Positions 42,869 to 62,468 of a DNA stretch of 64,000 nt are shown here, one piece after another. The notes under the pieces are model-generated. The model was given only the letters and a program-made list of their open reading frames with translations. It had not been told where the DNA came from and searched no databases. This stretch comes from Bacteroidota bacterium (lineage in GTDB: Bacteria > Bacteroidota > Bacteroidia > Bacteroidales > JACABE01). Made by a program: the position numbers and the translations under genes. Numbering within the stretch: the first letter of the stretch is position 1; every line of letters begins with the position of its first letter. The stretch is from contig JAPLDQ010000019.1 in assembly GCA_026391675.1 (NCBI GenBank), positions 87,780 to 151,779 of the forward strand, in the 5' to 3' direction.

Positions 42869-43048
42869 TTTTTGTCTTTATTAAATTTCGTGCAAAGATA
42901 GTGTTTTTTGGTGTAAAAACAATCAAAAATATCATGAAGCCTGAAGTCGGAAATCCGAAGACCGAAGTCTGGCTGCAGGGGTTAGAAGCTTGCCGGGAAT
43001 AATATTAAGATGAGGATTACATAATGTTTTTTAGAAGTGATTTTAATT

Positions 43049-43078
43049 CCTTACTTTTCCCTCTTGATGGAAAAGTAA
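43049..43078. repeat. Perfect 11-bp hairpin inside a repeat-rich intergenic zone
   Basis: CTTACTTTTCC-CTCTTGAT-GGAAAAGTAAG. It is part of a composite repeat that also occurs around 48.73-48.96 kb. Confidence 0.6.
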
Positions 43079-43360
43079 GCAAAAGATCAAGTCTGCAAAT
43101 CCTTTACTTCAAATCTACGCTTTTAAAATCCCTGCGCAATACAAGCCGTAGCGAAAATAATATTATTTCATTTATGTTTCCTTTAAACTTCGCTATCTTC
43201 TGTATTGCTTGCGCAAAGCCACCGCTATTTAAAAAGCTTGATTTGTAACGTAAAGTATTTGAGGACAGTCCAGCTTCGTAGAGATAACAGTACTTAAAGT
43301 ACTTAAACAACTATCTGTTTTAAAGATTAACAATCGACGGTATTATAAGCCATTTTAAGT

Positions 43361-43400
43361 AAATCACCAAATCGCGAAATCACTAAATCACTAATTTGAC
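43361..43400. repeat. Octamer tandem array (AAATCACN x5; reverse complement of the NGTGATTT units at 62472-62527)
   Basis: AAATCACC AAATCGCG AAATCACT AAATCACT AATTTGAC was read directly. Confidence 0.8.
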
Positions 43401-43470
43401 ATTTTTTCTGAATATTTCTATCCTCAACGTTTATGCTTGATTCTTTTGATTATCGTATCTTCTTTTGCAT

Positions 43471-43496
43471 AAAAAAAGCCACCCAAAAGGATAGCT
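43471..43496 (-). terminator. Intrinsic terminator downstream of the small lipoprotein ORF
   Basis: The minus-strand RNA reads AGCUAUCC-UUUU-GGGUGGCU followed by UUUUUUU. The stem is 8 bp including two G-U pairs. Confidence 0.5.
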
Positions 43497-43520
43497 TTTA
43501 AAAGGGATAATATATGGTTT

Positions 43521-43712
43521 TTATTTATTGATAGTAGTTTCGTAATTATATGTTTTGGTATCAACGCTATCATTTCTAATTGATTTAGAATTATCAGGCA
43601 TTTCAACAGAATTTATAAAACGGAAACCTGGTAAACTGACATTTAAATCTGAATTACATTTATTTAAACCTATTGCTCCTGAAAAAATTAAAATAAGTAC
43701 TGACGTTTTCAT
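43521..43712 (-). CDS. Small putative lipoprotein (63 aa)
   Basis: Signal peptide plus Cys (MKTSVLILIFSGAIGLNKC). A terminator-like hairpin sits about 25 nt downstream. It overlaps alternative-frame ORFs that look spurious. Confidence 0.45.
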   Translation of the reverse strand: MKTSVLILIFSGAIGLNKCNSDLNVSLPGFRFINSVEMPDNSKSIRNDSVDTKTYNYETTINK

Positions 43713-43953
43713 GTGTTATTATTTTTATATAATTTATCATTATGACGAGAAGATAAATGAAAAAGTTACAACTAAAACCTGATTTCATTTGTTAAAATTG
43801 TACTTTTGCCGTGCAGCAAAGGCTGCATAAAAAATTAAATATAATAATTACAACTTATAGATATGAAATGCCCAAGGTAAATATTGCAAATAAAGCAGAA
43901 TTGATTATTTGGGCATTCATTTGTACATATAAATTAAATCAAAAAATAAACAA

Positions 43954-45300: not shown

Positions 45301-45670
45301 CGAAACAACAGTTCGTTCTATCGCTGTCCCGCCATAGGCGGGAGAGAGGAAAGTCCGGGCAACATAGAGCAAGCATACTTCCTAACGGGAAGGTCCCTTC
45401 TTTGAGGGGAACAGCAAGTGCCACAGAAAATAACCGTCCCGCCTTGTGCGGGATAAGGGTGAAAATGTGAGGTAAGAGCTCACGTTCTGCTTTGGCAACA
45501 AGGCAGAAGGGTAAACCTTATGCGTTGAAAGACCAAATATACCGGATGTTAAGGGCTGCTCGTCCGATGCCGGGGGGTAGGTCGTTAGAGGCTACCGGCG
45601 ACGATAGTCCCAGATAAATGATAGAAGTCCCTTTGGGAAACAGAACCCGGCTTACAGAACTGTTGTTTTA
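45301..45670 (+). ncRNA. rnpB: RNase P RNA, bacterial type A
   Basis: Universally conserved P4 strands are present: 'GAGGAAAGTCCGGGC' (5') and 'ACAGAACCCGGCTTA' (3'). The terminal P1 pairing is AAACAACAGTTC (45303-45314) with GAACTGTTGTTT (45657-45668). Internal 'GGTAAGAGCTCAC' and 'GGGTAAACC' elements are present. ORFs called here (45150-45470 +, 45158-45424 -) are artefacts. Confidence 0.92.
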
Positions 45671-52220: not shown

Positions 52221-52308
52221 AACAAAAGAATGATATTAAATTACGGTAATATTTAATATAAATCAGACAGCAGTTAAGGAATTATGATAATTGATTTAAA
52301 ACATACTT

Positions 52309-52575
52309 ATGAATGAAAATCTAAATATTAAAATAAGAAGTATGTTCATTTTTTTTGTTGGGTTTTTCCCATTTTACGTATCTGTATTTAGTGACTTTTA
52401 TAATAAATTTGAATTAGGGGTAATATTTATCTGCTTGGGTTCTATAATGCTTTCTCTTGTTTTAGGAATACTTTATTACTTTTTAAGTAAAAAAATGGCA
52501 AATACATTCAGAAACTTAATTTTAATAATTTTTATTTTAATGATAATATATGCCAATTTATGGGCTGTAAATTAA
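52309..52575 (+). CDS. Small hydrophobic protein (88 aa, about 3 TM)
   Basis: ORF track. Three hydrophobic segments. AT-rich. No homolog recognised. Confidence 0.4.
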   Translation: MNENLNIKIRSMFIFFVGFFPFYVSVFSDFYNKFELGVIFICLGSIMLSLVLGILYYFLSKKMANTFRNLILIIFILMIIYANLWAVN

Positions 52576-52637
52576 ATTCAAATTTTTGACTTCCTAAACT
52601 TTACGGATCTACTGGAAGCAGCTCTAATTTTTCAACA

Positions 52638-53507: not shown

Positions 53508-53867
53508 GTTAACATTTTTTTTACAAAACTACATAATCTATTGTTATCAAATAAACATTTGCTGTTCAATGACGCATTTTTTTTGTTAAATGACGAAAAT
53601 AAGGTATTGAACAATGATTAAATTCCGGTAAAATCAAAATTAGCTTAGTAGTTTGTGCCACAATTGAAGTGAGACTGTGAGAAATGTTTTCAGAAATTTA
53701 GTATTTATAACTGCTTTACTTGATAAGTTTTAATTCCAGCATCTTGGACAACCAATATTTTTATTAAAATGCACTTAAAGGTCTTAAAAAACTAATAGAT
53801 TGATATCGCTTTCATTTTACTATTATATAAATTAAATTTTATTAAAATCATTTCTAATTTATAAATA

Positions 53868-54116
53868 GTGCTGGTGCATTAACTTTTTATTTATATTTAT
53901 AACACGTTGATAACAAAATATATATAAGTATTCTTTGATTTTTTGAATTGAATTGACTTTTAGTTTAGCATTAAATTAAAGTGCAAGATTATGAATTCAG
54001 TAAGTATTTTTTGTTCAGCTATTAGTTTAAATAGAACTACTTACAAAAATACAAGTCAATTAAAATTTCAGAGAACAATAGGATATATTTAACTATTAAT
54101 TTTAACGCACCAGCAG
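53868..54116. other. Nested inverted repeats defining a ~250-nt potential long hairpin or structured RNA within an ORF-free AT-rich leader
   Basis: Outer arm TGCTGGTGCATTAA (53869-53882) pairs with TTAACGCACCAGCA (54102-54115) at 13 of 14 positions. Middle arm AATTGACTT (53951-53959) pairs with AAGTCAATT (54053-54061), 9 of 9. Inner arm GTAAGTA (54000-54006) pairs with TACTTAC (54038-54044), 7 of 7. Confidence 0.45.
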
Positions 54117-54495
54117 TAATTTATAAAAACAAATAACTTAAAAAATAATTATGAAATTAATCCTTCTAATTTTATTTTATTAATTTTGGATTGATAAAAT
54201 TATTATTAATTCTTATTTGATATAATGGATCTAACAAATAAACTAATAAATATTATTTATTTCTATTAGATTTTGAAATAAGTATTTAAAAAAAATAGAA
54301 ATTTAACAATAATAAAGACATTACTATTAATTAATTACAGTTACTCTAAGGGAAATAATCTATATTAAAGTTTTTATTTATTATTTTTTTGTATATTATT
54401 AAGTTAATTAAATTAAGATTTAATATCTAAAATTGTAATTTTATTAATTTTAATCTACAAAATGTATTAATATTAAAAAAATCTAATTTTATAAC

Positions 54496-54503
54496 TATTT
54501 TTG
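54496..54503 (+). promoter_or_regulatory. Candidate -7 promoter box (TAnnTTTG) for the ATPase/HNH-like operon
   Basis: 'TATTTTTG' ends 13 nt upstream of the ATG at 54517. Confidence 0.4.
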
Positions 54504-54516
54504 TAAAAAACATGAT

Positions 54517-55905
54517 ATGAAAATTCATAAAATAAGTCTAAATAATTATAATCAATTTAATAATTTAGAAATTGATTTAACTTATCCTAAAGGACATAAA
54601 AAAGAGGGAAAACCTTTGGATAAAATTTGTTTTATTGGACAAAGTGGTACAGGAAAAACAAGTCTATTAAGATTAATAAAGTACTTTATTACTAATAAAA
54701 GAGGAATAGGGACAGGGGTTTCATTAGATCCAATTGAAAAAGATAAAGTTAAAATGATAATGAGTTTTGATAAATTTTTATATGAAAAATTTGTTGAACC
54801 AAAATCTTTTCTAATTCATAATATAACAGACAAAAGCGATGATTCTTGGTTTTCTGAATGGCAAATAGCATTATCAAATCATTTCTCAACATATAAACCG
54901 ATATTAATTAATTTCCCAACTGAAAGATTAGTAAATAAGAATGAAGAGGTTATAAATGATGAAATTATCAAAAATTCTGACGAAAAGAAGAATAAAAGAA
55001 TTAAATATTTAGAAGACTTAAAACCTGGAGAAATAGTTGATTTTGCATTTGAAGATAGCTCAAAGGCATGGGATTTAGTTCTAAGTGATATAAAAAAACA
55101 TCAATCAATAGATTTAGAATGGAGAAGTAAAATTTCAGAAATTATTTTAAAAACAAACTCAGAACCGTCTGATTTTGAAAAGATAAATAGAGAATTTCAA
55201 AATTGGCTAACTAAAAACCCCAATCCACTAGATTTACTAGCAAAAGAAATAAATAAAATTCTTATAGAGTTTGGTATAAAAATCAAAACTGATATTGATA
55301 AAGAATCAATATTCCACATAGGAAGTATTCTATTGCAGACTTTAGATGGAAAAACAATAGATAGGGATTTTTGGAGTACAGGAACAAAGCAAATAATTGA
55401 CACAGCAATCCCATTAATTGAAATAAAACCTAAAAATGCAATAATTCTTATTGATGAACCAGAACGTTCATTATATCCAAATCTTCAACAAAGAATAATT
55501 GATTTTTATACAAATCTTGGAAATAATTGCCAATTCTTTTTTGCAACTCATTCACCAATTATAGCTTCAGCATTTGATCCTTGGGAAATAATTGAATTAA
55601 AATTTGATGAAAGTAAAACAAATGTTATTCAAGAAAAGAATTATCTAAATGAGCGTCATATCGATAATTATACTGTTTTTCCCAAATATTTAAAATGGGA
55701 TGGTATTTTAATGAAACTTTTTGATTTAACTGATGAAGGGAATAATAAATATAGACAAGAAGAATTACAGAAAGTTGCATCTTTAAAAAATGAATTAAAT
55801 GAATTAAAAAATAAAAGAAAAAATAAAGGTGCTGCTTTTGAGAAAAAATTAAATGAATTTATTAAACTGAAAAACAAAGTTGGATGGGATGAAAAAACTG
55901 AATAA
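54517..55905 (+). CDS. ptuA: ABC/AAA_21-type P-loop ATPase, PtuA-like (Septu-type defence ATPase candidate)
   Basis: N-terminal 'IHKISLNNYNQFNNLEIDL' (SMC/RecF-like head start). Walker A 'GQSGTGKTS'. Walker B plus D-loop 'ILIDEPERSLYP'. 'FFFATHSPIIAS' is the ATHSP signature of AAA_21/OLD-like ATPases. C-terminal coiled coil. It overlaps the next gene by 17 nt. Confidence 0.65.
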   Translation: MKIHKISLNNYNQFNNLEIDLTYPKGHKKEGKPLDKICFIGQSGTGKTSLLRLIKYFITNKRGIGTGVSLDPIEKDKVKMIMSFDKFLYEKFVEPKSFLIHNITDKSDDSWFSEWQIALSNHFSTYKPILINFPTERLVNKNEEVINDEIIKNSDEKKNKRIKYLEDLKPGEIVDFAFEDSSKAWDLVLSDIKKHQSIDLEWRSKISEIILKTNSEPSDFEKINREFQNWLTKNPNPLDLLAKEINKILIEFGIKIKTDIDKESIFHIGSILLQTLDGKTIDRDFWSTGTKQIIDTAIPLIEIKPKNAIILIDEPERSLYPNLQQRIIDFYTNLGNNCQFFFATHSPIIASAFDPWEIIELKFDESKTNVIQEKNYLNERHIDNYTVFPKYLKWDGILMKLFDLTDEGNNKYRQEELQKVASLKNELNELKNKRKNKGAAFEKKLNEFIKLKNKVGWDEKTE

Positions 55906-56527
55906 ATCGTTACAATTATCCACAAAATTTAGTTATTGGTATTCAAAAAATAAAACTAAAGATTACAAATCTACCAATGATCCTTTTTATTATGACGTTT
56001 TATATGAGTTATTAATAATTCAAGAGGGTTTATGTGCTTATACTGAAATCAGAATGATTGATGAAAAATCATTAGAAACATTAAAATCAGGATTTAATGA
56101 CGGTAAGTATTCTATTGATTTTAGACCTCAAACACCTGCACAAATTGAACATTTTTCAAAATTAAAGAAGAAATCAAATGGATGGGATTGGAATAATTTA
56201 TTTGCAGTTTATATTGATATAAATCACAAAAAAAACTATTTAGAGGATAGGTATGGAGTTTCATCTATTTTAAAACCCGATAATCCAAGTTATGATCCTT
56301 TAAAATATTTAATGTACGATTCTTCTAATCATATATTTTTCCCAAATTCAAAATTAAAAAAACCATTACAAGATAAAGTTTCAAAAATGATAATAGTTTT
56401 AGGAATAAATAATGATTTTATTAAAATGCAGAGAAGAGAATATATTAATTCAATAAAAGAGAAAGAATATTTTTTGGAAAAGAAATTGGTTATCAATCAG
56501 TTTATTACTGCTTACAATATGATTTAA
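55889..56527 (+). CDS. ptuB: TIGR02646/PtuB-like HNH-family protein with degenerate zinc ligands
   Basis: The HNH core pattern is 'GLCAYTE' (canonical C-A-Y-C-E), 'QIEHFSKL' (I-E-H-F), 'WDWNNLFAV' and 'INHKKN'. The tail 'ILKPDNP...LKYLMYDSSNHIFFPNS...VLGINNDFIKMQRREYI' matches the family's C-terminal '...LNLN..L...R'. The ATG at 55889 is preferred over the TTG at 55880. Confidence 0.6.
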   Translation: MKKLNKSLQLSTKFSYWYSKNKTKDYKSTNDPFYYDVLYELLIIQEGLCAYTEIRMIDEKSLETLKSGFNDGKYSIDFRPQTPAQIEHFSKLKKKSNGWDWNNLFAVYIDINHKKNYLEDRYGVSSILKPDNPSYDPLKYLMYDSSNHIFFPNSKLKKPLQDKVSKMIIVLGINNDFIKMQRREYINSIKEKEYFLEKKLVINQFITAYNMI

Positions 56528-56568
56528 AATATTTTTTACGTATTTATTAATATACTCCCAAATAATAC

Positions 56569-56760
56569 CTAATCATCTCTTTCAGGTCTTTCATCAACAG
56601 GTCTTCCATGAATTGGCCAATCATTTTGGCTTTTCTTTATTTCATTATCACGTCGAGCTTGGTCTTCCCTTTGCCTTCTTTCTTGTTCCTGTCGTTGTCT
56701 TTCTTGTTCAGCTCTTCTTCTTTGTTCTTCTTCAATTCTTTTTTGATCTTCATTACTCAT
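56569..56760 (-). CDS. 63-aa highly charged Glu/Arg/Gln-rich (ER/K single-helix-like) peptide
   Basis: 'RIEEEQRRRAEQERQRQEQERRQREDQARRD'. It lies 12 nt downstream of the 3-TM gene on the same strand. The low-complexity composition means a chance ORF cannot be excluded. Confidence 0.45.
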   Translation of the reverse strand: MSNEDQKRIEEEQRRRAEQERQRQEQERRQREDQARRDNEIKKSQNDWPIHGRPVDERPERDD

Positions 56761-56772
56761 AACTTAAAATAT

Positions 56773-57240
56773 TTAAAGTGAAATAATCATAAAAACAACT
56801 AATATAATAATTGCAAAAATTAATAACAATAAACTTAATCCATTTAAAATATGAGTAAGTTTATTATAAATACATTTTTTACATTCGATTTCGATTTGAT
56901 CTTCTTTTAATTCTTTACCTTTTTCTTTTTTAATAATATTTTTTATTAATTGTACCTCAAATTTATTCGCATAATATGATGTAACCTGTGAAAGTAAATT
57001 TGACACTATTGATAAAGTAAATAATATCCATGAAATTTTTAACATTAAAAAATTCACATTAGGTTTACTTAACAAAATATCTTTTACAAAGCCCATTGAT
57101 AGGGCTAAACCACCACTAGATATCGAAATAATTAATATATCAAATCGATTAAGTGAATATTTAAGATTATCTTTTGTTGCATCTAAATGGGCTTCTAAAT
57201 TAACAATATATTGACTATTTTTATTTGATATTTCTTTCAT
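56773..57240 (-). CDS. Small 3-TM membrane protein (SLATT/DUF4231-like topology; possible membrane effector)
   Basis: N-terminal soluble helix, TM1 'FDILIISISSGGLALSMGFV', TM2 'ISWILFTLSIVSNLLSQVTSY', a charged helix, and a C-terminal TM 'GLSLLLLIFAIIILVVFMIISL'. The similarity to SLATT is topological only. Confidence 0.6.
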   Translation of the reverse strand: MKEISNKNSQYIVNLEAHLDATKDNLKYSLNRFDILIISISSGGLALSMGFVKDILLSKPNVNFLMLKISWILFTLSIVSNLLSQVTSYYANKFEVQLIKNIIKKEKGKELKEDQIEIECKKCIYNKLTHILNGLSLLLLIFAIIILVVFMIISL

Positions 57241-57409
57241 ATTTACAAAATCTATTATAAATTTTCAAATCAATAACAAAAATAATACTTATTTATAGCA
57301 ATAATTAAAATGTTGATAACTTATATTATTAATTTTTTGCTATAAACAAGAATTATTGATATTTAGATAAGTTTTTTAAGAATGTTTTGAATTGTTAAAG
57401 TAAAAAAAT

Positions 57410-57886
57410 ATGCATTTTCATACTATTTTTTTATACTTTTGTCTAGTGAAAAGGATAACATCTTATATCAGTTGCATTGTCATCATTATTTTATTCCTGG
57501 CTTCTTCCACAGGAATCAGCTTTGTTATTCACCACTGCTCCAATGATCATTCCGAAGAAATACGTTTTTTTGCCATTGATTACCAGTGCGCTCACGAAAA
57601 AATTACCGATGACTGTGCAAAAGATAACTATGGCCAGCATCATTGTGATAAACACAGCAACCATCACTGCTGTAAAAACACCAGAGGCTATTTTAGAATT
57701 GCTGATGAATATACTGTTTCTAAAAGTGACATAAAAATCAATATTCCGGTTTTTGTTAATACTGCTGTAGTTGTTTCTCCTGCTTCAATTCATTCTGATT
57801 TCTTTACCTATAATAATATTTGCAGTCAGCACCCCTCCTCTTCAGGAGTGAGTATTTATTGCATGAATTCCCAGTTTCTTATCTGA
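57410..57886 (+). CDS. His/Cys-rich membrane-anchored protein upstream of the metal efflux genes (HYC_CC_PP-like putative metal-binding protein)
   Basis: N-terminal TM, then 'VIHHCSNDHSEE', 'CAHEKITDDCAKDNYGQHHCDKHSNHHCCKN'. Its position directly upstream of czcA is typical for such proteins in Bacteroidota. Confidence 0.6.
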   Translation: MHFHTIFLYFCLVKRITSYISCIVIIILFLASSTGISFVIHHCSNDHSEEIRFFAIDYQCAHEKITDDCAKDNYGQHHCDKHSNHHCCKNTRGYFRIADEYTVSKSDIKINIPVFVNTAVVVSPASIHSDFFTYNNICSQHPSSSGVSIYCMNSQFLI

Positions 57887-58061: not shown

Positions 58062-58079
58062 TTGCTAATAATAAAAATC

Positions 58080-61000
58080 ATGATAGAACATATTATAAAA
58101 TTTTCAATCAAAAATAAATTCGTTATCGGATTATTCATTGTGGCTTTAATCGGATGGGGAAGCTATTCGCTGATCCGTCTGCCCATTGATGCCATACCCG
58201 ATATTACCAATAACCAGGTACAGGTAATTGCACTGGCTCCTTCGCTGGCGGTGCAGGAAGTAGAAAGTTTCATTACTGCTCCAATAGAGGTGTCTGTTGC
58301 CAATATACCCAATATTGTGGAGCTGCGTTCTATTTCGCGACTTGGTTTATCGGTAGTTACCATTGTTTTTAAAGATAATGTTGACCTATACTGGGCGCGG
58401 CAACAGTTAAACGAACGTTTAAAGGAAGCCGAAGAAGCCATCCCTCCCGGACTGGCCAAGATTGAGCTTGCCCCTGTTTCGTCAGGATTGGGTGAGATAT
58501 TCCAATACCGCCTGGCAGTAGCAAAAGGTTATGAAGACAAGTATAATCCAATGGAACTGCGTACCATACAGGACTGGATTGTACGCCGCGAAATGCTGGG
58601 AACTCCGGGCATTGCTGATATCAACAGCTATGGTGGTTTTGTCAAGCAATATGAGATAGCCGTAAATCCTGAAAGACTCAGAGGGATGAACCTTAGTCTT
58701 ACAGATATCTTTACCGCACTCGAAAAGAACAATGAGAATACAGGCAGTGCCTATATTGATAAAAAACCCAATGCCTATTTTATACGCGGTATCGGTTTGG
58801 TAAAAACACTGGCTGATATCGAAAAGATAGTGGTTAAAAACAATACATCGGGGATTCCTATATTAATCCGTGATATTGCCAAAGTGGAATATGGCAGTGC
58901 TACCCGTTACGGCGCTTTTGTGGTTGACACATCAGAAGCTGTGGGCGGTGTGGTTATGATGCTGAAAGGAGCCAATGCCCATGAAGTGATAGAAGATGTT
59001 CAGGAACGCATTAAAGCCATACAAAAATCATTACCAAAAGCTGTAAGAATTGAACCTTATTTAAACCGTTCCGACCTTGTTGGACGTGCCATTGGTACGG
59101 TTTCAAAAAACCTTATTGAAGGGGCTTTAATAGTAATTTTTATTCTTGTTCTTCTGCTGGGAAATATGAGGGCCGGTCTCATTGTGGCTTCTGTGATTCC
59201 GCTTTCCATGCTCTTTGCTATTTCACTGATGAATCTGTTCGGAGTATCGGGTAATCTGATGAGCCTGGGTGCCATTGATTTCGGATTAATTGTAGACGGT
59301 GCTGTTATCATCGTCGAAAGCGTGGTGCACAGGATATCGAAAAGCAAGACACATCACTTAGGTATTGAACGGCTTTCGCAACAGCAAATGGATGAGAATG
59401 TATTTGAATCAGCCAAACGCATGATGAGTTCAGCTACTTTCGGACAAATCATCATCCTTATCGTTTATCTTCCTATTATTGCGCTGGTAGGCATTGAAGG
59501 AAAGATGTTCCGCCCGATGGCCCAGGTAGTGGCTTTTGCACTGCTGGGTGCTGCTATACTTTCCCTGACTTATGTTCCTATGGCTTCCGCACTATTTCTG
59601 AGTAAAAAGACTGTATCTAAAGCAAATTTATCGGACAAACTGATGGAATTGATTACTAAAGCTTTTAATCCTGCAATTGCTTATGCATTAAAACATAAGA
59701 TGCAGGTTTCATTGGCAGCTATAGTATTATTTATTCTGAGTCTTTTGCTGTTCACACAATTAGGAGGCGAATTTATTCCTCAGCTCGAAGAAGGAGATCT
59801 GGCAGCAGGTGTTATGACACTACAGGGCGGGTCATTGTCAAATACAGTTGATCAGGTAAAAAAAGCAAATAAGATATTACTTGACAATTTCCCTGAAGTT
59901 AAACATGCAGTCTGTAAAATAGGTGCAGGAGAAATCCCTACTGACCCCACTCCTATGGAAACCGGTGATTATATTATTACACTCAAGGATAAAAGTGAAT
60001 GGACTTCTGCTAAAAGCCGTGAAGAACTGGTAGCAAAAATGGAAGATAAACTGGTAACACTGGCAGGGGTTAAATTTGAATTCCAGCAACCTATACAAAT
60101 GCGATTTAACGAATTGATGACAGGGTCAAAACAGGATGTAGCCATTAAAATATTTGGCGATAATCTTGGGACACTGGCTGATAAAGCAGCAGAAGTAGAA
60201 AAAATCATTCAGAAAGTTGAAGGAGTAGAAGATATTAATGTGGAGAAACTCACAGGACTGGCTCAGGTTCAGATTAATTTCAACCGCGACAGGCTTGCAC
60301 AATACGGACTTTCTGTGGATGATGGCAGTAAAATATTACGTTCTGCTTTTGCAGGGAGTCAGGCAGGTGTGGTTTATGATGAAGAAAAACGATTTGCACT
60401 GGTAGTGCGTCTGGATAAAGATTACCGCCAGAGTATAAAAGATGTAAAAAGCCTAACCCTTGCCCTGCCCAATGGCGGACAAATTCCTTTTGAACAGGTG
60501 GCGGATATCAGCATACAATCCGGACCGGCTCAGGTTTCAAGAGAAGATACCAAACGAAGGATAACCATTGGATTTAATGTCCGAATGCGGGATGTGGCAA
60601 GTGTTATTGAAGATGTTAAAACCAAAATTGATCAGCAGATTATATTACCCAGTGGATATTATGTATCCTATGGCGGACAGTTCAAAAATCTGGAAGCTGC
60701 CAGAAACAGACTGGCCATTGCTGTTCCTGTGGCTTTATTATTGATTTTTGTATTACTATATTTTACTTTTCATTCCGTTAAACAATCCCTGTTAATTTAT
60801 ACTGCAGTTCCCATGTCAGCCATAGGCGGTATTATCGCACTCTGGCTTAGAGGAATGAATTTTTCCATATCAGCCGGTGTTGGTTTTATTGCTTTGTTTG
60901 GTGTGGCGGTACTCAATGGCATCGTATTGATTGCCGAATTTAACCGGCTGGAAAAAGAAGGTATCACAGATATCAACGAACGCGTGCTTAAAGGATTGAA

Positions 61001-62468
61001 AACCCGTCTGCGTCCTGTAATCATGACGGCTGCCGTTGCTTCGCTCGGATTTTTACCCATGGCATTATCAACTTCAGCCGGTGCCGAAGTACAGAAACCT
61101 TTGGCAACTGTTGTAATTGGTGGGCTTATCACAGCAACATTACTTACATTGCTTATACTTCCTGTTTTCTATATTATTTTCTCCAACTATAAATTCAGCA
61201 TTTCATTTAAAAGCAAAACATCCAAAGTAATTAGCATAGTTATATTAGTATTTATGACAACTTGCTGTTTTATGAATGTAAAGGCACAGGAAATAAAGTA
61301 TATCAATTTGCATGATGCGATACAAATGGCGCTGGACAGGAATTTAAATCTCCGTTCTTCCGCTTATGCCGTTGACGAACAAAAAGCGATGAAAGCTGCT
61401 AGCTGGGATATCAGCAAAACCAATATTGAACTGCAATACGGGCAATTTAATTCTTATGAAAAAGACAATGGGTTAACAGTATCCCAGTCCTTTGCATTTC
61501 CAACGGTATATATGATGCAAAGCAAACTGGCCAATGCCAGGGTAAAAAGCAGTGAATGGCAGTTGAAAAGTGCACAACTTGAAATTACCACTCAGCTTAA
61601 GCAACTTTACTGGCAATTGGCTTATCTGTTCTCAAAACAAAAATTACTGATCTATCAGGACAGTCTTTTTTCAAGTTTCCAACGGGCAGCTGAATTAAGG
61701 GCTAATTCGGGTGAAACCATTAAACTTGAAATGATTACGGCACGTTCGCAAAGTATGGAAGTTAAGAACCAGCGTTATCAGGTAAATGCTGATATAGGCA
61801 TTTATTTACGTAAACTGAGGACATTACTGAATACTGATATTTTAGTTTATCCGGCTGATATCATACTTAAACGGATTAATTACACAGTAGTTCCCTTAAC
61901 TTCTGAAATAGCCAATAATCCATCTCTGGCTTATATGCAGCAACAGATAGAGGTTTCGCAAAAAGAAAAACAAGTCGAAGTAAACCGCAGCTTACCCGAT
62001 CTAAGTATTGGCTATTTCAGCCAAACCATAAGGGGTACGCAGGAGGTAAATGGCCTTCCCCGTAGCTTCGGTGCCGGTGACCGTTTTACCGGCGTACAAT
62101 TGGGTATCTCCATTCCGCTTTGGTTTATGCCTTATAAAGCAAAAATAAAGTCGGCTCAGATTCAGGAGAATATGGCCAGGACAGATGCTGAAAATTACAA
62201 GAATACACTATCAAATAATTATCTTTCCTTATTGGATGAATATGCAAAATATCTCGGGAGTATTAATTATTACGAACAGCAGGCAGTTCCTGAAGCTGAG
62301 TTAATCATTGAACAAGCCAGCCAGAGTTATAAAGCCGGTGCAATGGATTACCTGGAATATATACTGAGTCTGAACCGTGCGCTGATTATTAAACAAAATC
62401 AACTGGATGCCATTAACAACTATAATCAAACCGTTATCAACATTGAGTTTGTTTGCGGGAAGTTGTAA
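58080..62468 (+). CDS. czcA: CusA/CzcA-family heavy-metal efflux RND pump fused in frame to a TolC/CzcC-like outer-membrane factor
   Basis: 'MIEHIIKFSIKNKF' is a typical CzcA start (the ATG at 58080 is preferred to the TTG at 58062). The RND region has 12 TM segments and runs to about aa 1040. 'KSKTSKVISIVILVFMTTCCFMNVKAQE' is signal-peptide-like, beginning near 61210. 'LHDAIQMALDRNLNLRSS...' opens a TolC-type region with two-repeat helical content running to the stop at 62468. Confidence 0.85.
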   Translation: MIEHIIKFSIKNKFVIGLFIVALIGWGSYSLIRLPIDAIPDITNNQVQVIALAPSLAVQEVESFITAPIEVSVANIPNIVELRSISRLGLSVVTIVFKDNVDLYWARQQLNERLKEAEEAIPPGLAKIELAPVSSGLGEIFQYRLAVAKGYEDKYNPMELRTIQDWIVRREMLGTPGIADINSYGGFVKQYEIAVNPERLRGMNLSLTDIFTALEKNNENTGSAYIDKKPNAYFIRGIGLVKTLADIEKIVVKNNTSGIPILIRDIAKVEYGSATRYGAFVVDTSEAVGGVVMMLKGANAHEVIEDVQERIKAIQKSLPKAVRIEPYLNRSDLVGRAIGTVSKNLIEGALIVIFILVLLLGNMRAGLIVASVIPLSMLFAISLMNLFGVSGNLMSLGAIDFGLIVDGAVIIVESVVHRISKSKTHHLGIERLSQQQMDENVFESAKRMMSSATFGQIIILIVYLPIIALVGIEGKMFRPMAQVVAFALLGAAILSLTYVPMASALFLSKKTVSKANLSDKLMELITKAFNPAIAYALKHKMQVSLAAIVLFILSLLLFTQLGGEFIPQLEEGDLAAGVMTLQGGSLSNTVDQVKKANKILLDNFPEVKHAVCKIGAGEIPTDPTPMETGDYIITLKDKSEWTSAKSREELVAKMEDKLVTLAGVKFEFQQPIQMRFNELMTGSKQDVAIKIFGDNLGTLADKAAEVEKIIQKVEGVEDINVEKLTGLAQVQINFNRDRLAQYGLSVDDGSKILRSAFAGSQAGVVYDEEKRFALVVRLDKDYRQSIKDVKSLTLALPNGGQIPFEQVADISIQSGPAQVSREDTKRRITIGFNVRMRDVASVIEDVKTKIDQQIILPSGYYVSYGGQFKNLEAARNRLAIAVPVALLLIFVLLYFTFHSVKQSLLIYTAVPMSAIGGIIALWLRGMNFSISAGVGFIALFGVAVLNGIVLIAEFNRLEKEGITDINERVLKGLKTRLRPVIMTAAVASLGFLPMALSTSAGAEVQKPLATVVIGGLITATLLTLLILPVFYIIFSNYKFSISFKSKTSKVISIVILVFMTTCCFMNVKAQEIKYINLHDAIQMALDRNLNLRSSAYAVDEQKAMKAASWDISKTNIELQYGQFNSYEKDNGLTVSQSFAFPTVYMMQSKLANARVKSSEWQLKSAQLEITTQLKQLYWQLAYLFSKQKLLIYQDSLFSSFQRAAELRANSGETIKLEMITARSQSMEVKNQRYQVNADIGIYLRKLRTLLNTDILVYPADIILKRINYTVVPLTSEIANNPSLAYMQQQIEVSQKEKQVEVNRSLPDLSIGYFSQTIRGTQEVNGLPRSFGAGDRFTGVQLGISIPLWFMPYKAKIKSAQIQENMARTDAENYKNTLSNNYLSLLDEYAKYLGSINYYEQQAVPEAELIIEQASQSYKAGAMDYLEYILSLNRALIIKQNQLDAINNYNQTVINIEFVCGKL

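Follow-up and report, generated by a model that had tools for sequence, protein, structure and literature searches.

The segment at 53508-57409 of a 64,000-nucleotide (nt) stretch of a Bacteroidota genome (contig JAPLDQ010000019.1; the whole stretch is referred to here as the window) is probably a small, horizontally acquired defense islet in which two unrelated two-gene cassettes stand tail to tail amid adenine/thymine-rich (AT-rich) filler. The cassette on the plus strand (54517-56527) appears by sequence to be a stand-alone type I Septu system (ptuA and ptuB), an already known type and not a retron. The cassette on the minus strand (56569-57240) encodes a membrane protein with three long helices, followed by a small, highly charged peptide. 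The two cassettes are independent and do not form one four-gene system. A first-pass annotation, made by a model from the DNA alone, had called the segment a candidate defense island, which is a fair label: its ATPase/HNH pair corresponds to Septu, and the membrane–peptide pair recurs beside defense genes in other genomes.

The composition check that this annotation had asked for was run, and it marks the segment as compositionally foreign. Its guanine-plus-cytosine (GC) content of 22.6%, compared with 33.7% across the rest of the window, is the minimum among all 3.9-kb windows (mean fraction 0.330, sd 0.027), in agreement with the earlier remark that the segment is richer in A and T than its neighbors. 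This bias is not merely intergenic, because the GC fraction at third codon positions (GC3) is low in all four genes (0.127, 0.174, 0.141, and 0.115, compared with 0.271 ± 0.041 in 40 other genes). The dominance of AAA, AAT, and ATT codons that had been noted by eye was confirmed by counting, with values of 10.8, 7.3, and 5.8% in the island and 5.4, 4.7, and 4.9% in flanking genes; TTA is likewise enriched among the island codons (7.0%).

From its composition and the scattered contexts of both cassettes, and from these only, the segment was probably acquired horizontally. Several results weigh against acquisition. A tRNA scan of the segment found none, no direct repeats flank it, and it contains no open reading frame (ORF) for an integrase, transposase, or recombinase, as the first-pass annotation had remarked for integrase, transposase, and tRNA. 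Comparison of the methyltransferase–czc junction in relatives, which had also been suggested, was carried out and found no empty site: the closest relatives of the methyltransferase (81, 67, and 66% identical) are non-syntenic and do not adjoin czc, and single-protein scans of genome and metagenome collections with the methyltransferase gave no match. The marks of an integrative genomic island (recombinase, tRNA target, direct repeats, and empty site) were thus all absent. These same absences would suit a native, fast-evolving segment that was never acquired, as would a host genome that is itself AT-rich (33% GC) and has intergenic DNA of 24 ± 6% GC. However, each of the four genes has a GC3 that is 2.4-3.8 sd under that of the 40 neighboring genes, the nearest homologues of each pair occupy unrelated contexts, and a related metagenome-assembled genome (L021) has a 47%-identical membrane–peptide pair elsewhere, without Septu. 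Given these differences, we regard a native origin as improbable.

ptuA (54517-55905, plus strand) encodes a 462-residue ABC-type (AAA_15/AAA_21) ATPase. It matched PADLOC model PDLC00274 at 4.4e-65 (218.7 bits, spanning model positions 1-368 of 438), and Pfam AAA_15 (3.1e-22; 80.2 bits, cutoff 32.1) and AAA_21 (1.1e-16) were both above their cutoffs. The Walker A (GQSGTGKTS), Walker B (IILIDE314), and H-loop (ATHSP) motifs are intact, and Glu-314 aligns with Glu-396 of PtuA from retron-Ec78, in which the E396Q mutant is inactive (PMC12819146). At E ≤ 1e-10, 1588 homologues were found. ptuB (55889-56527, plus strand) encodes a 212-residue HNH nuclease whose start is either the ATG at 55889, which gives a 17-nt overlap with ptuA, or a TTG at 55880; the overlapping ATPase and HNH-like pair of the first-pass annotation is therefore borne out. 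In PADLOC the protein matched the HNH_I-A model of type I-A retrons (1.6e-18) and sixteen PtuB models (best PDLC00324, 1.1e-13), and the NCBIfam PtuB model matched at 8.5e-15 over positions 4-196, under its equivalog cutoff. Among named NCBIfam models, PtuA and PtuB match the pair best. The motifs CAYTE, IEH88F, WxN103L, and DxN112xxK are shared with a 68%-identical PtuB encoded at another locus (L015), and His-88, Asn-103, and Asn-112 are the candidate catalytic His/Asn/Asn residues by the general HNH pattern.

Type I Septu (PtuA/PtuB) is said to have been described by Doron et al. in 2018. The window cassette resembles it in having overlapping genes for an ABC-type ATPase of ∼460 residues and then an HNH nuclease of ∼210 residues, in its strong PADLOC matches to PtuA and PtuB, in its intact Walker A, Walker B, and H-N-N motifs, and in having no reverse transcriptase. 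It differs in being very distant in sequence from the proteins studied so far, its PtuA aligning to PtuA chains in the PDB only at the Walker B region (E ∼1e-4), and in that its host is an uncultured member of the Bacteroidota. Several points count against the assignment of PtuB: the protein missed the curated NCBI cutoffs (55 versus 150 bits and 28 versus 52 bits), it had no match in a sequence search of the PDB, and it has lost most of the zinc-finger cysteines, keeping one of the four that are typical of TIGR02646-type HNH proteins. In addition, its single-sequence AlphaFold2 (AF2) model reached a predicted local distance difference test (pLDDT) score of 34.9, too low for a fold comparison with the solved PtuB structure (PDB 8EE7, as cited in PMC12819146).

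PtuAB also serves as the effector of type I-A retrons (Ec78/Eco7 and Ec83), and the retron I-A HNH model is the top PADLOC match of the window PtuB, just as the top NCBIfam names are those of retron Ec78 PtuA and PtuB. However, the retron models NF041760 and NF041761 scored 45.8 and 55.2 bits, compared with cutoffs of 500 and 150, and the window PtuA has 462 residues compared with 550 for Ec78 PtuA (PDB chains), which carries N- and C-terminal extensions (PMC12819146). There is no reverse transcriptase ORF in 53.5-57.4 kb, no ORF of more than 33 codons in the 1 kb upstream, and no Rfam match at E ≤ 1. Because there is neither a reverse transcriptase nor a noncoding RNA and PtuA is shorter than the Ec78 form, we assign the cassette to stand-alone Septu. 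Weaker PADLOC matches of PtuA were to the related ATPases AriA (6.6e-22), GajA (3.6e-12), and AbiLi; an ABC/OLD-type ATPase core is common to PtuA, PARIS (AriA/AriB), and Gabija (GajA), whereas the partner in the window is an HNH protein and not a TOPRIM protein, and the PtuA models score far higher. The suggestion that the ATPase/HNH pair might be a new defense system was accordingly not upheld.

In the published systems an ABC ATPase (PtuA) is paired with an HNH nuclease of the ββα-Me type (PtuB), and the stand-alone PtuAB complex is held under tight control until infection (PMC12819146); Septu is reported to block phage T6 via cleavage of the variable loop of tRNA-Tyr (PMC13096335). By analogy with this work on Septu and retron-Ec78 PtuAB, PtuA oligomers in the host of the window would restrain PtuB until a phage infects; the nuclease of the complex would then be switched on, cleaving phage DNA or host tRNA-Tyr and halting the infection.

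Given that the four genes are neighbors with the same extreme AT bias and that the two convergent cassettes are only 41 nt apart, we considered whether they might be one new four-gene defense system under a structured 1-kb leader RNA, as the first-pass annotation had proposed in suggesting that the genes and the leader may work together. The comparison with other loci speaks against this. PtuA and PtuB occur in 0 of 66 other membrane-gene loci, and the membrane gene occurs in 0 of 4 PtuA loci. Nucleotide similarity stops at the borders of each pair: the island DNA is 77% identical to L015 exactly from the ATG of ptuA to the stop codon of ptuB and 74% identical to L016 over the membrane and peptide genes only. 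L015 carries the closest PtuA with complete downstream DNA (76% identical), and an overlapping PtuB likewise follows there, but beyond these two genes L015 shares nothing with the window; L012 (PtuA 73% identical) is without the membrane gene, although little DNA follows its ptuA. Furthermore, two genes are known to make up a working Septu system (PMC12819146), and the leader is without significant structure, Rfam match, or conservation. The cassettes are independent because they never co-occur elsewhere and because DNA homology ends at the borders of each pair, and a single four-gene system, now largely refuted, is very improbable. A terminator between the convergent operons was also considered and was unsupported (z = -1.5 and -1.1).

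The stretch upstream of ptuA (53508-54516) had been described as ∼1 kb without an ORF of at least 60 codons and as a structured leader. The first description is real, the longest ORF having 33 codons, but it is expected from composition: ORF absence is uninformative here, given that shuffling at constant composition also leaves no ORF of 60 codons or more in 90% of cases. The GC content of this stretch (18.7%) is within the intergenic background (24.2 ± 5.8%), and only its length is unusual (1009 nt, compared with an intergenic median of 140). The second description failed, with fold z-scores of +1.33, -1.96, and -0.18 and no Rfam family at E ≤ 1 in a search of the segment. Matches to a σ70-like promoter in the leader were not above those in shuffles (54 versus 43.6 ± 7), blastx and blastn against all fetched loci revealed no trace of a pseudogene, and a single AT-rich match in the plasmid collection was judged to be due to chance.

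At the left end, 53508-53598 is the native upstream (promoter/5′) region of the minus-strand methyltransferase gene and not imported DNA, as judged by similarity to L041: over the 82 nt of 53517-53598, identity to the DNA directly upstream of the L041 methyltransferase gene is 85%, and the genes themselves are 81% identical. Because these first ∼90 nt are native, the left edge of the imported DNA would fall inside the AT-rich spacer, between ∼53.6 and 54.5 kb. In the spacer proper (53599-54495; GC 15-23%) no gene, RNA family, or repeat was detected and no structure was significant, and compared with the fetched loci the spacer has no similarity beyond a chance match of 44 nt. Related ptuA genes are preceded by gaps of 68 and 238 nt, and the 1-kb leader is therefore not part of Septu. 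Apart from the native methyltransferase region on its left and a short candidate promoter on its right, it is a non-functional spacer. An independent assembly of the same organism (L001, Logan contig SRR20698640) breaks within the spacer, 508 nt upstream of ptuA, which fits low coverage or assembly difficulty in DNA of 15-18% GC.

The methyltransferase itself is a class I S-adenosylmethionine enzyme of the type that acts on small molecules (UbiE/ArsM-like), and it was rejected on these grounds as a DNA-modification partner of the islet.

Directly upstream of each operon there is a candidate −7 promoter element of the TAnnTTTG type, which is the consensus of Bacteroidetes σABfr promoters. By pattern match, the putative element for ptuAB (TATTTTTG; 54496-54503, plus strand) ends 13 nt before the ATG of ptuA, and that for the membrane–peptide operon (TATTTTTG; 57277-57284, minus strand) lies 37 nt upstream of the ATG at 57240. 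The latter is overlapped by a long imperfect palindrome found in the inverted-repeat search (57281-57357; 29-nt arms and a 19-nt spacer), which occupies part of the gap (13.6% GC) that separates the membrane gene from the HYC_CC_PP/czc operon. Its fold energy of -21 kcal/mol, compared with -9.5 ± 2.5 for shuffles (z = -4.57), was equaled by 0 of 200 shuffles, and the region has no similarity among the other fetched loci. The palindrome may act as an operator of the divergent czc promoter, or it may be a feature or scar of a junction.

The first gene of the minus-strand cassette (56773-57240) encodes a 155-residue membrane protein, NTZ33_06700 in the NCBI entry for this Bacteroidota metagenome-assembled genome, on a 243-kb contig. 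An AF2 model built from a 33-sequence alignment has a pLDDT of 88 and three long helices (residues 6-56, 65-106, and 115-154), and hydrophobic segments indicate three transmembrane passes. The invariant residues in the alignment are Tyr-28, Asp-34, Leu-36, Ile-37, Ser-41, Asn-81, Leu-82, Ser-84, Gln-85, Asn-133, and Phe-150, and the polar ones among them at positions 41, 81, 84, 85, and 133 are in the membrane helices or at their ends. Because Lys plus Arg residues number 7.6 at the N terminus, 1.0 in the loop, 8.8 in the hairpin, and 0.7 at the C terminus, the topology is predicted to be N terminus in and C terminus out, with a cytoplasmic three-helix face. Forty-nine close homologues were found, and a profile of 33 of them recovered 3315 representatives (clusters at 50% identity) at E ≤ 1e-3 and 662 at 1e-10 from 1.84 billion proteins.

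The PADLOC run on the four proteins that had been proposed earlier left this protein and its peptide partner unmatched, and neither window protein matched a family in Pfam, NCBIfam, PADLOC, or PHROG. For the 33 close homologues Pfam and PADLOC were scanned, and for 124 wider members PADLOC only. Pfam matched 0 of the 33 and gave one SLATT_5 match at E = 0.055 among ten others; the marginal PADLOC matches were to PycTM (1 of 33, 0.0017), 2TM (5 of 124, best E 0.0011), and RTasSLATT (1 of 124, E 7.5e-4). A Foldseek search of the PDB with the pLDDT-88 model returned generic helical bundles only (E > 1), the only matches of a profile search of PDB sequences were to transmembrane helices and attributable to chance, and our literature search found no description of the membrane–peptide pair.

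The second gene (56569-56760, minus strand) encodes a 63-residue peptide containing 12 Glu, 14 Arg, and 9 Gln residues and ending in G-R-P-V-D-E-R-P-E-R-D-D. The three-transmembrane protein and the Glu/Arg-rich peptide that the first-pass annotation had read on this strand are thus real genes. Among the contexts first examined, a gene of 49-68 codons always followed the membrane gene after 3-12 nt, and in 50 of the 55 loci with enough downstream sequence to evaluate the membrane gene is followed, at a distance of -4 to +14 nt, by a small ORF bearing the C-terminal motif. The pair is therefore bicistronic, tightly coupled, and kept together, as looked for in toxin–antitoxin and abortive-infection modules. 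Across the family the peptides have 49-72 residues and a low-complexity body that is rich in Glu, Arg, Lys, and Gln, or in Gly, Asn, and Ser in the Flavobacterium johnsoniae group; the C terminus is the only conserved part ([KY]-G-x-[PG]-[TS]-[DG]-x-R-P-x-[KR]-D-D), with the Gly at -6 present in 48 of 49 unique peptides and the R-P in all 49. Motif search did not find the peptide in L052 and L053.

We read the pair as a translationally coupled membrane protein and a predicted cytoplasmic, highly charged peptide. In one 208-residue protein (P0197) the two appear to be naturally fused (…NLNS-MSDKDK…GDRPKRDK). Given the predicted C-out topology, this fusion would put the peptide outside the cell, which is awkward for a cytoplasmic peptide and so weighs against our reading; the fusion may reflect a stop-codon error, or it may be informative on topology.

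The named genomes that carry the pair are almost all Bacteroidota (Bacteroidales, Flavobacterium, Prolixibacteraceae, and Saprospiraceae), and the cultured carriers include F. johnsoniae CI04 and F. denitrificans DSM 15936. A tblastn search with the membrane protein found 0 matches in 72,556 plasmids and 0 in 50,697 phages, and 1 match in 2.9 million viral contigs; an origin of the pair in a phage lysis cassette was rejected on the phage and viral-contig counts.

The neighbors of the pair vary from locus to locus, and several of them belong to defense systems or mobile elements. A type IIG or type ISP restriction-modification enzyme is encoded directly upstream on the same strand in five loci (L031, L032, L035, L059, and L007, with gaps of -17, +8, +3, +63, and +27 nt) and directly downstream of the pair in L063, and a type IIG enzyme is nearby in L052 and L030. 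Sequence identity between the lineages of these restriction enzymes, of which there are at least three, is only 22-24%, compared with 40-65% among the adjacent membrane proteins, and no two of these loci have the same flanks. Genes for DruH/DruE of Druantia III follow the pair in L020 and L054, PDC-S71 precedes it in L036, HepT/MNT and Gp49/HTH modules are near it in L007, and Septu converges on it in the window. The association of the pair with type IIG enzymes is strong, and its association with defense genes overall is suggestive.

Around the membrane gene, contigs L052 and L053 have the same set of eight genes, and only one of the two continues into a 1125-residue type IIG enzyme, a possible presence/absence polymorphism of a restriction gene beside the module. 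An IS1595-family transposase (zinc ribbon plus DDE) is adjacent or within a few genes in seven loci of the F. johnsoniae type (L028, L037, L050, L062, L064, L070, and L073), most of which have a peptide body rich in Gly, Asn, and Ser or in Lys and Ser and not in Glu and Arg. In L021 (9944-17446), whose czcA and czcB are 86 and 80% identical to those of the window, the pair is again beside czc; it lies downstream of czcB and not upstream of czcA, and Septu, the methyltransferase, and an HYC homologue are all missing. Possibly insertions arrive repeatedly in the czc neighborhood, or else czc may itself be a mobile unit.

With a likelihood that we place somewhat below even, the pair is a defense-associated suicide module or a toxin–antitoxin-like immune module, an estimate of which a PrrC-like guard role makes up the lesser part. 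According to this proposal, the membrane protein would oligomerize, and its conserved polar helix residues would form a pore or lesion that depolarizes the membrane. The invariant tail of the peptide would dock on the Lys-rich cytoplasmic face and keep the membrane protein closed, and the tight translational coupling would keep the two in step. The membrane protein would be released once the peptide is lost or titrated, either during infection or when a neighboring nuclease system is disabled. Stated in its full form, which we offer tentatively, the proposal is of a new Bacteroidota-wide immune module in which a peptide-restrained three-helix effector stands beside nuclease defenses and acts in autonomous abortive infection or as a guard. 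The nuclease-based defenses so partnered would, equally tentatively, comprise type IIG enzymes of several lineages, Septu, Druantia III, and PDC-S71.

It is also possible, if rather doubtful, that the pair is not immune at all and is instead an accessory module with a membrane or stress function, or a selfish toxin–antitoxin addiction cassette, that accumulates in variable regions in which defense genes and IS elements collect as well. No PADLOC model matches the pair, which counts against an immune role; the family is very large (3315 clusters); and the IS1595 transposase is adjacent in the seven loci noted above. Ordinary metabolic or envelope genes are neighbors in many loci, among them housekeeping-looking genes for adenylate kinase, NDK, AIR carboxylase, beta-lactamase-fold proteins, and peptidase C25, and these too tell against an immune role. 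A non-immune role is hard to reconcile with the same-strand and often overlapping adjacency to type IIG enzymes, which is found in three lineages with different flanks and is difficult to explain as mere co-residence, and with the four other kinds of defense that immediately adjoin the pair, namely Septu, type ISP, Druantia III, and PDC-S71.

The restriction-enzyme loci also bear on whether the pair acts autonomously. PrrC works with the EcoprrI restriction enzyme, and on this precedent the pair might be a non-autonomous guard or back-up effector that senses the inactivation of a neighboring nuclease by phage anti-restriction and kills via the membrane. The repeated operon arrangement with type IIG enzymes, in which the block moves as a unit, would suit such a role, as would the proximity to Septu, Druantia, and PDC-S71. 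However, approximately three quarters of the loci have no recognizable defense gene immediately beside the pair, and in the window the pair is convergent to Septu and not co-transcribed with it. We consider a purely non-autonomous guard unlikely.

Known systems offer partial parallels to the immune module that we favor. Like PrrC–EcoprrI and RloC, the pair is a non-restriction module that is found inside or beside restriction operons and moves with them; unlike them it encodes a membrane protein and a peptide and not an anticodon nuclease. Small toxin–antitoxin and holin/antiholin modules likewise have two short, coupled genes for a multi-helix membrane protein and a small soluble partner, whereas the pair has no sequence or fold match to them and is nearly absent from phages. 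The SLATT, 2TM, and PycTM effectors of CBASS, Pycsar, and reverse transcriptase-based systems are also small helical membrane proteins encoded beside defense genes. The matches to these effectors were only faint, however (at most 6 of 124 members, with E of at least 7e-4), and the window protein has three helices instead of two and an obligatory small-peptide partner. No nucleotide-signal enzyme (CD-NTase, cyclase, SMODS, or TIR) was found in the window or among the commonest families of 126 neighboring proteins.

Several other features of the window were recorded. On the right of the islet, a Cys/His-rich protein of the HYC_CC_PP family (57410-57886) precedes czcA (58062-62468), whose 1468-residue product combines an RND pump domain (ACR_tran) and an outer membrane factor domain (OEP) in one protein according to Pfam; the same ACR_tran–OEP fusion is present in the 86%-identical CzcA of L021. 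On the other side of the methyltransferase gene there is a second AT-rich patch (52221-52637, 23% GC), and an ORF at 52309-52575 (22% GC, GC3 0.21) encodes a very hydrophobic protein of 88 residues with no family match. Another long ORF-free gap is explained by the class A bacterial RNase P RNA at 45305-45670 (272 bits). An ORF-poor gap of ∼1.1 kb at 42869-43953 (29% GC) has no ORF of 120 codons or more and no Rfam match at the gathering threshold.

Through the Septu cassette, a known family merely gains a distant member from the Bacteroidota. The main value of the islet lies in its second cassette, which represents a very large unannotated family with a strictly conserved peptide partner and a recurrent operon link, often with overlapping genes, to type IIG restriction enzymes. 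Phage defense in the Bacteroidota, a phylum of importance in the gut and in the environment, is under-studied, and the pair is open to experiment in that cultured Flavobacterium strains carry it. If the pair is indeed an immune or guard module, it would represent a new type of membrane-acting effector regulated by a peptide tail, and it would open a way to study the back-up of restriction systems in Bacteroidota.

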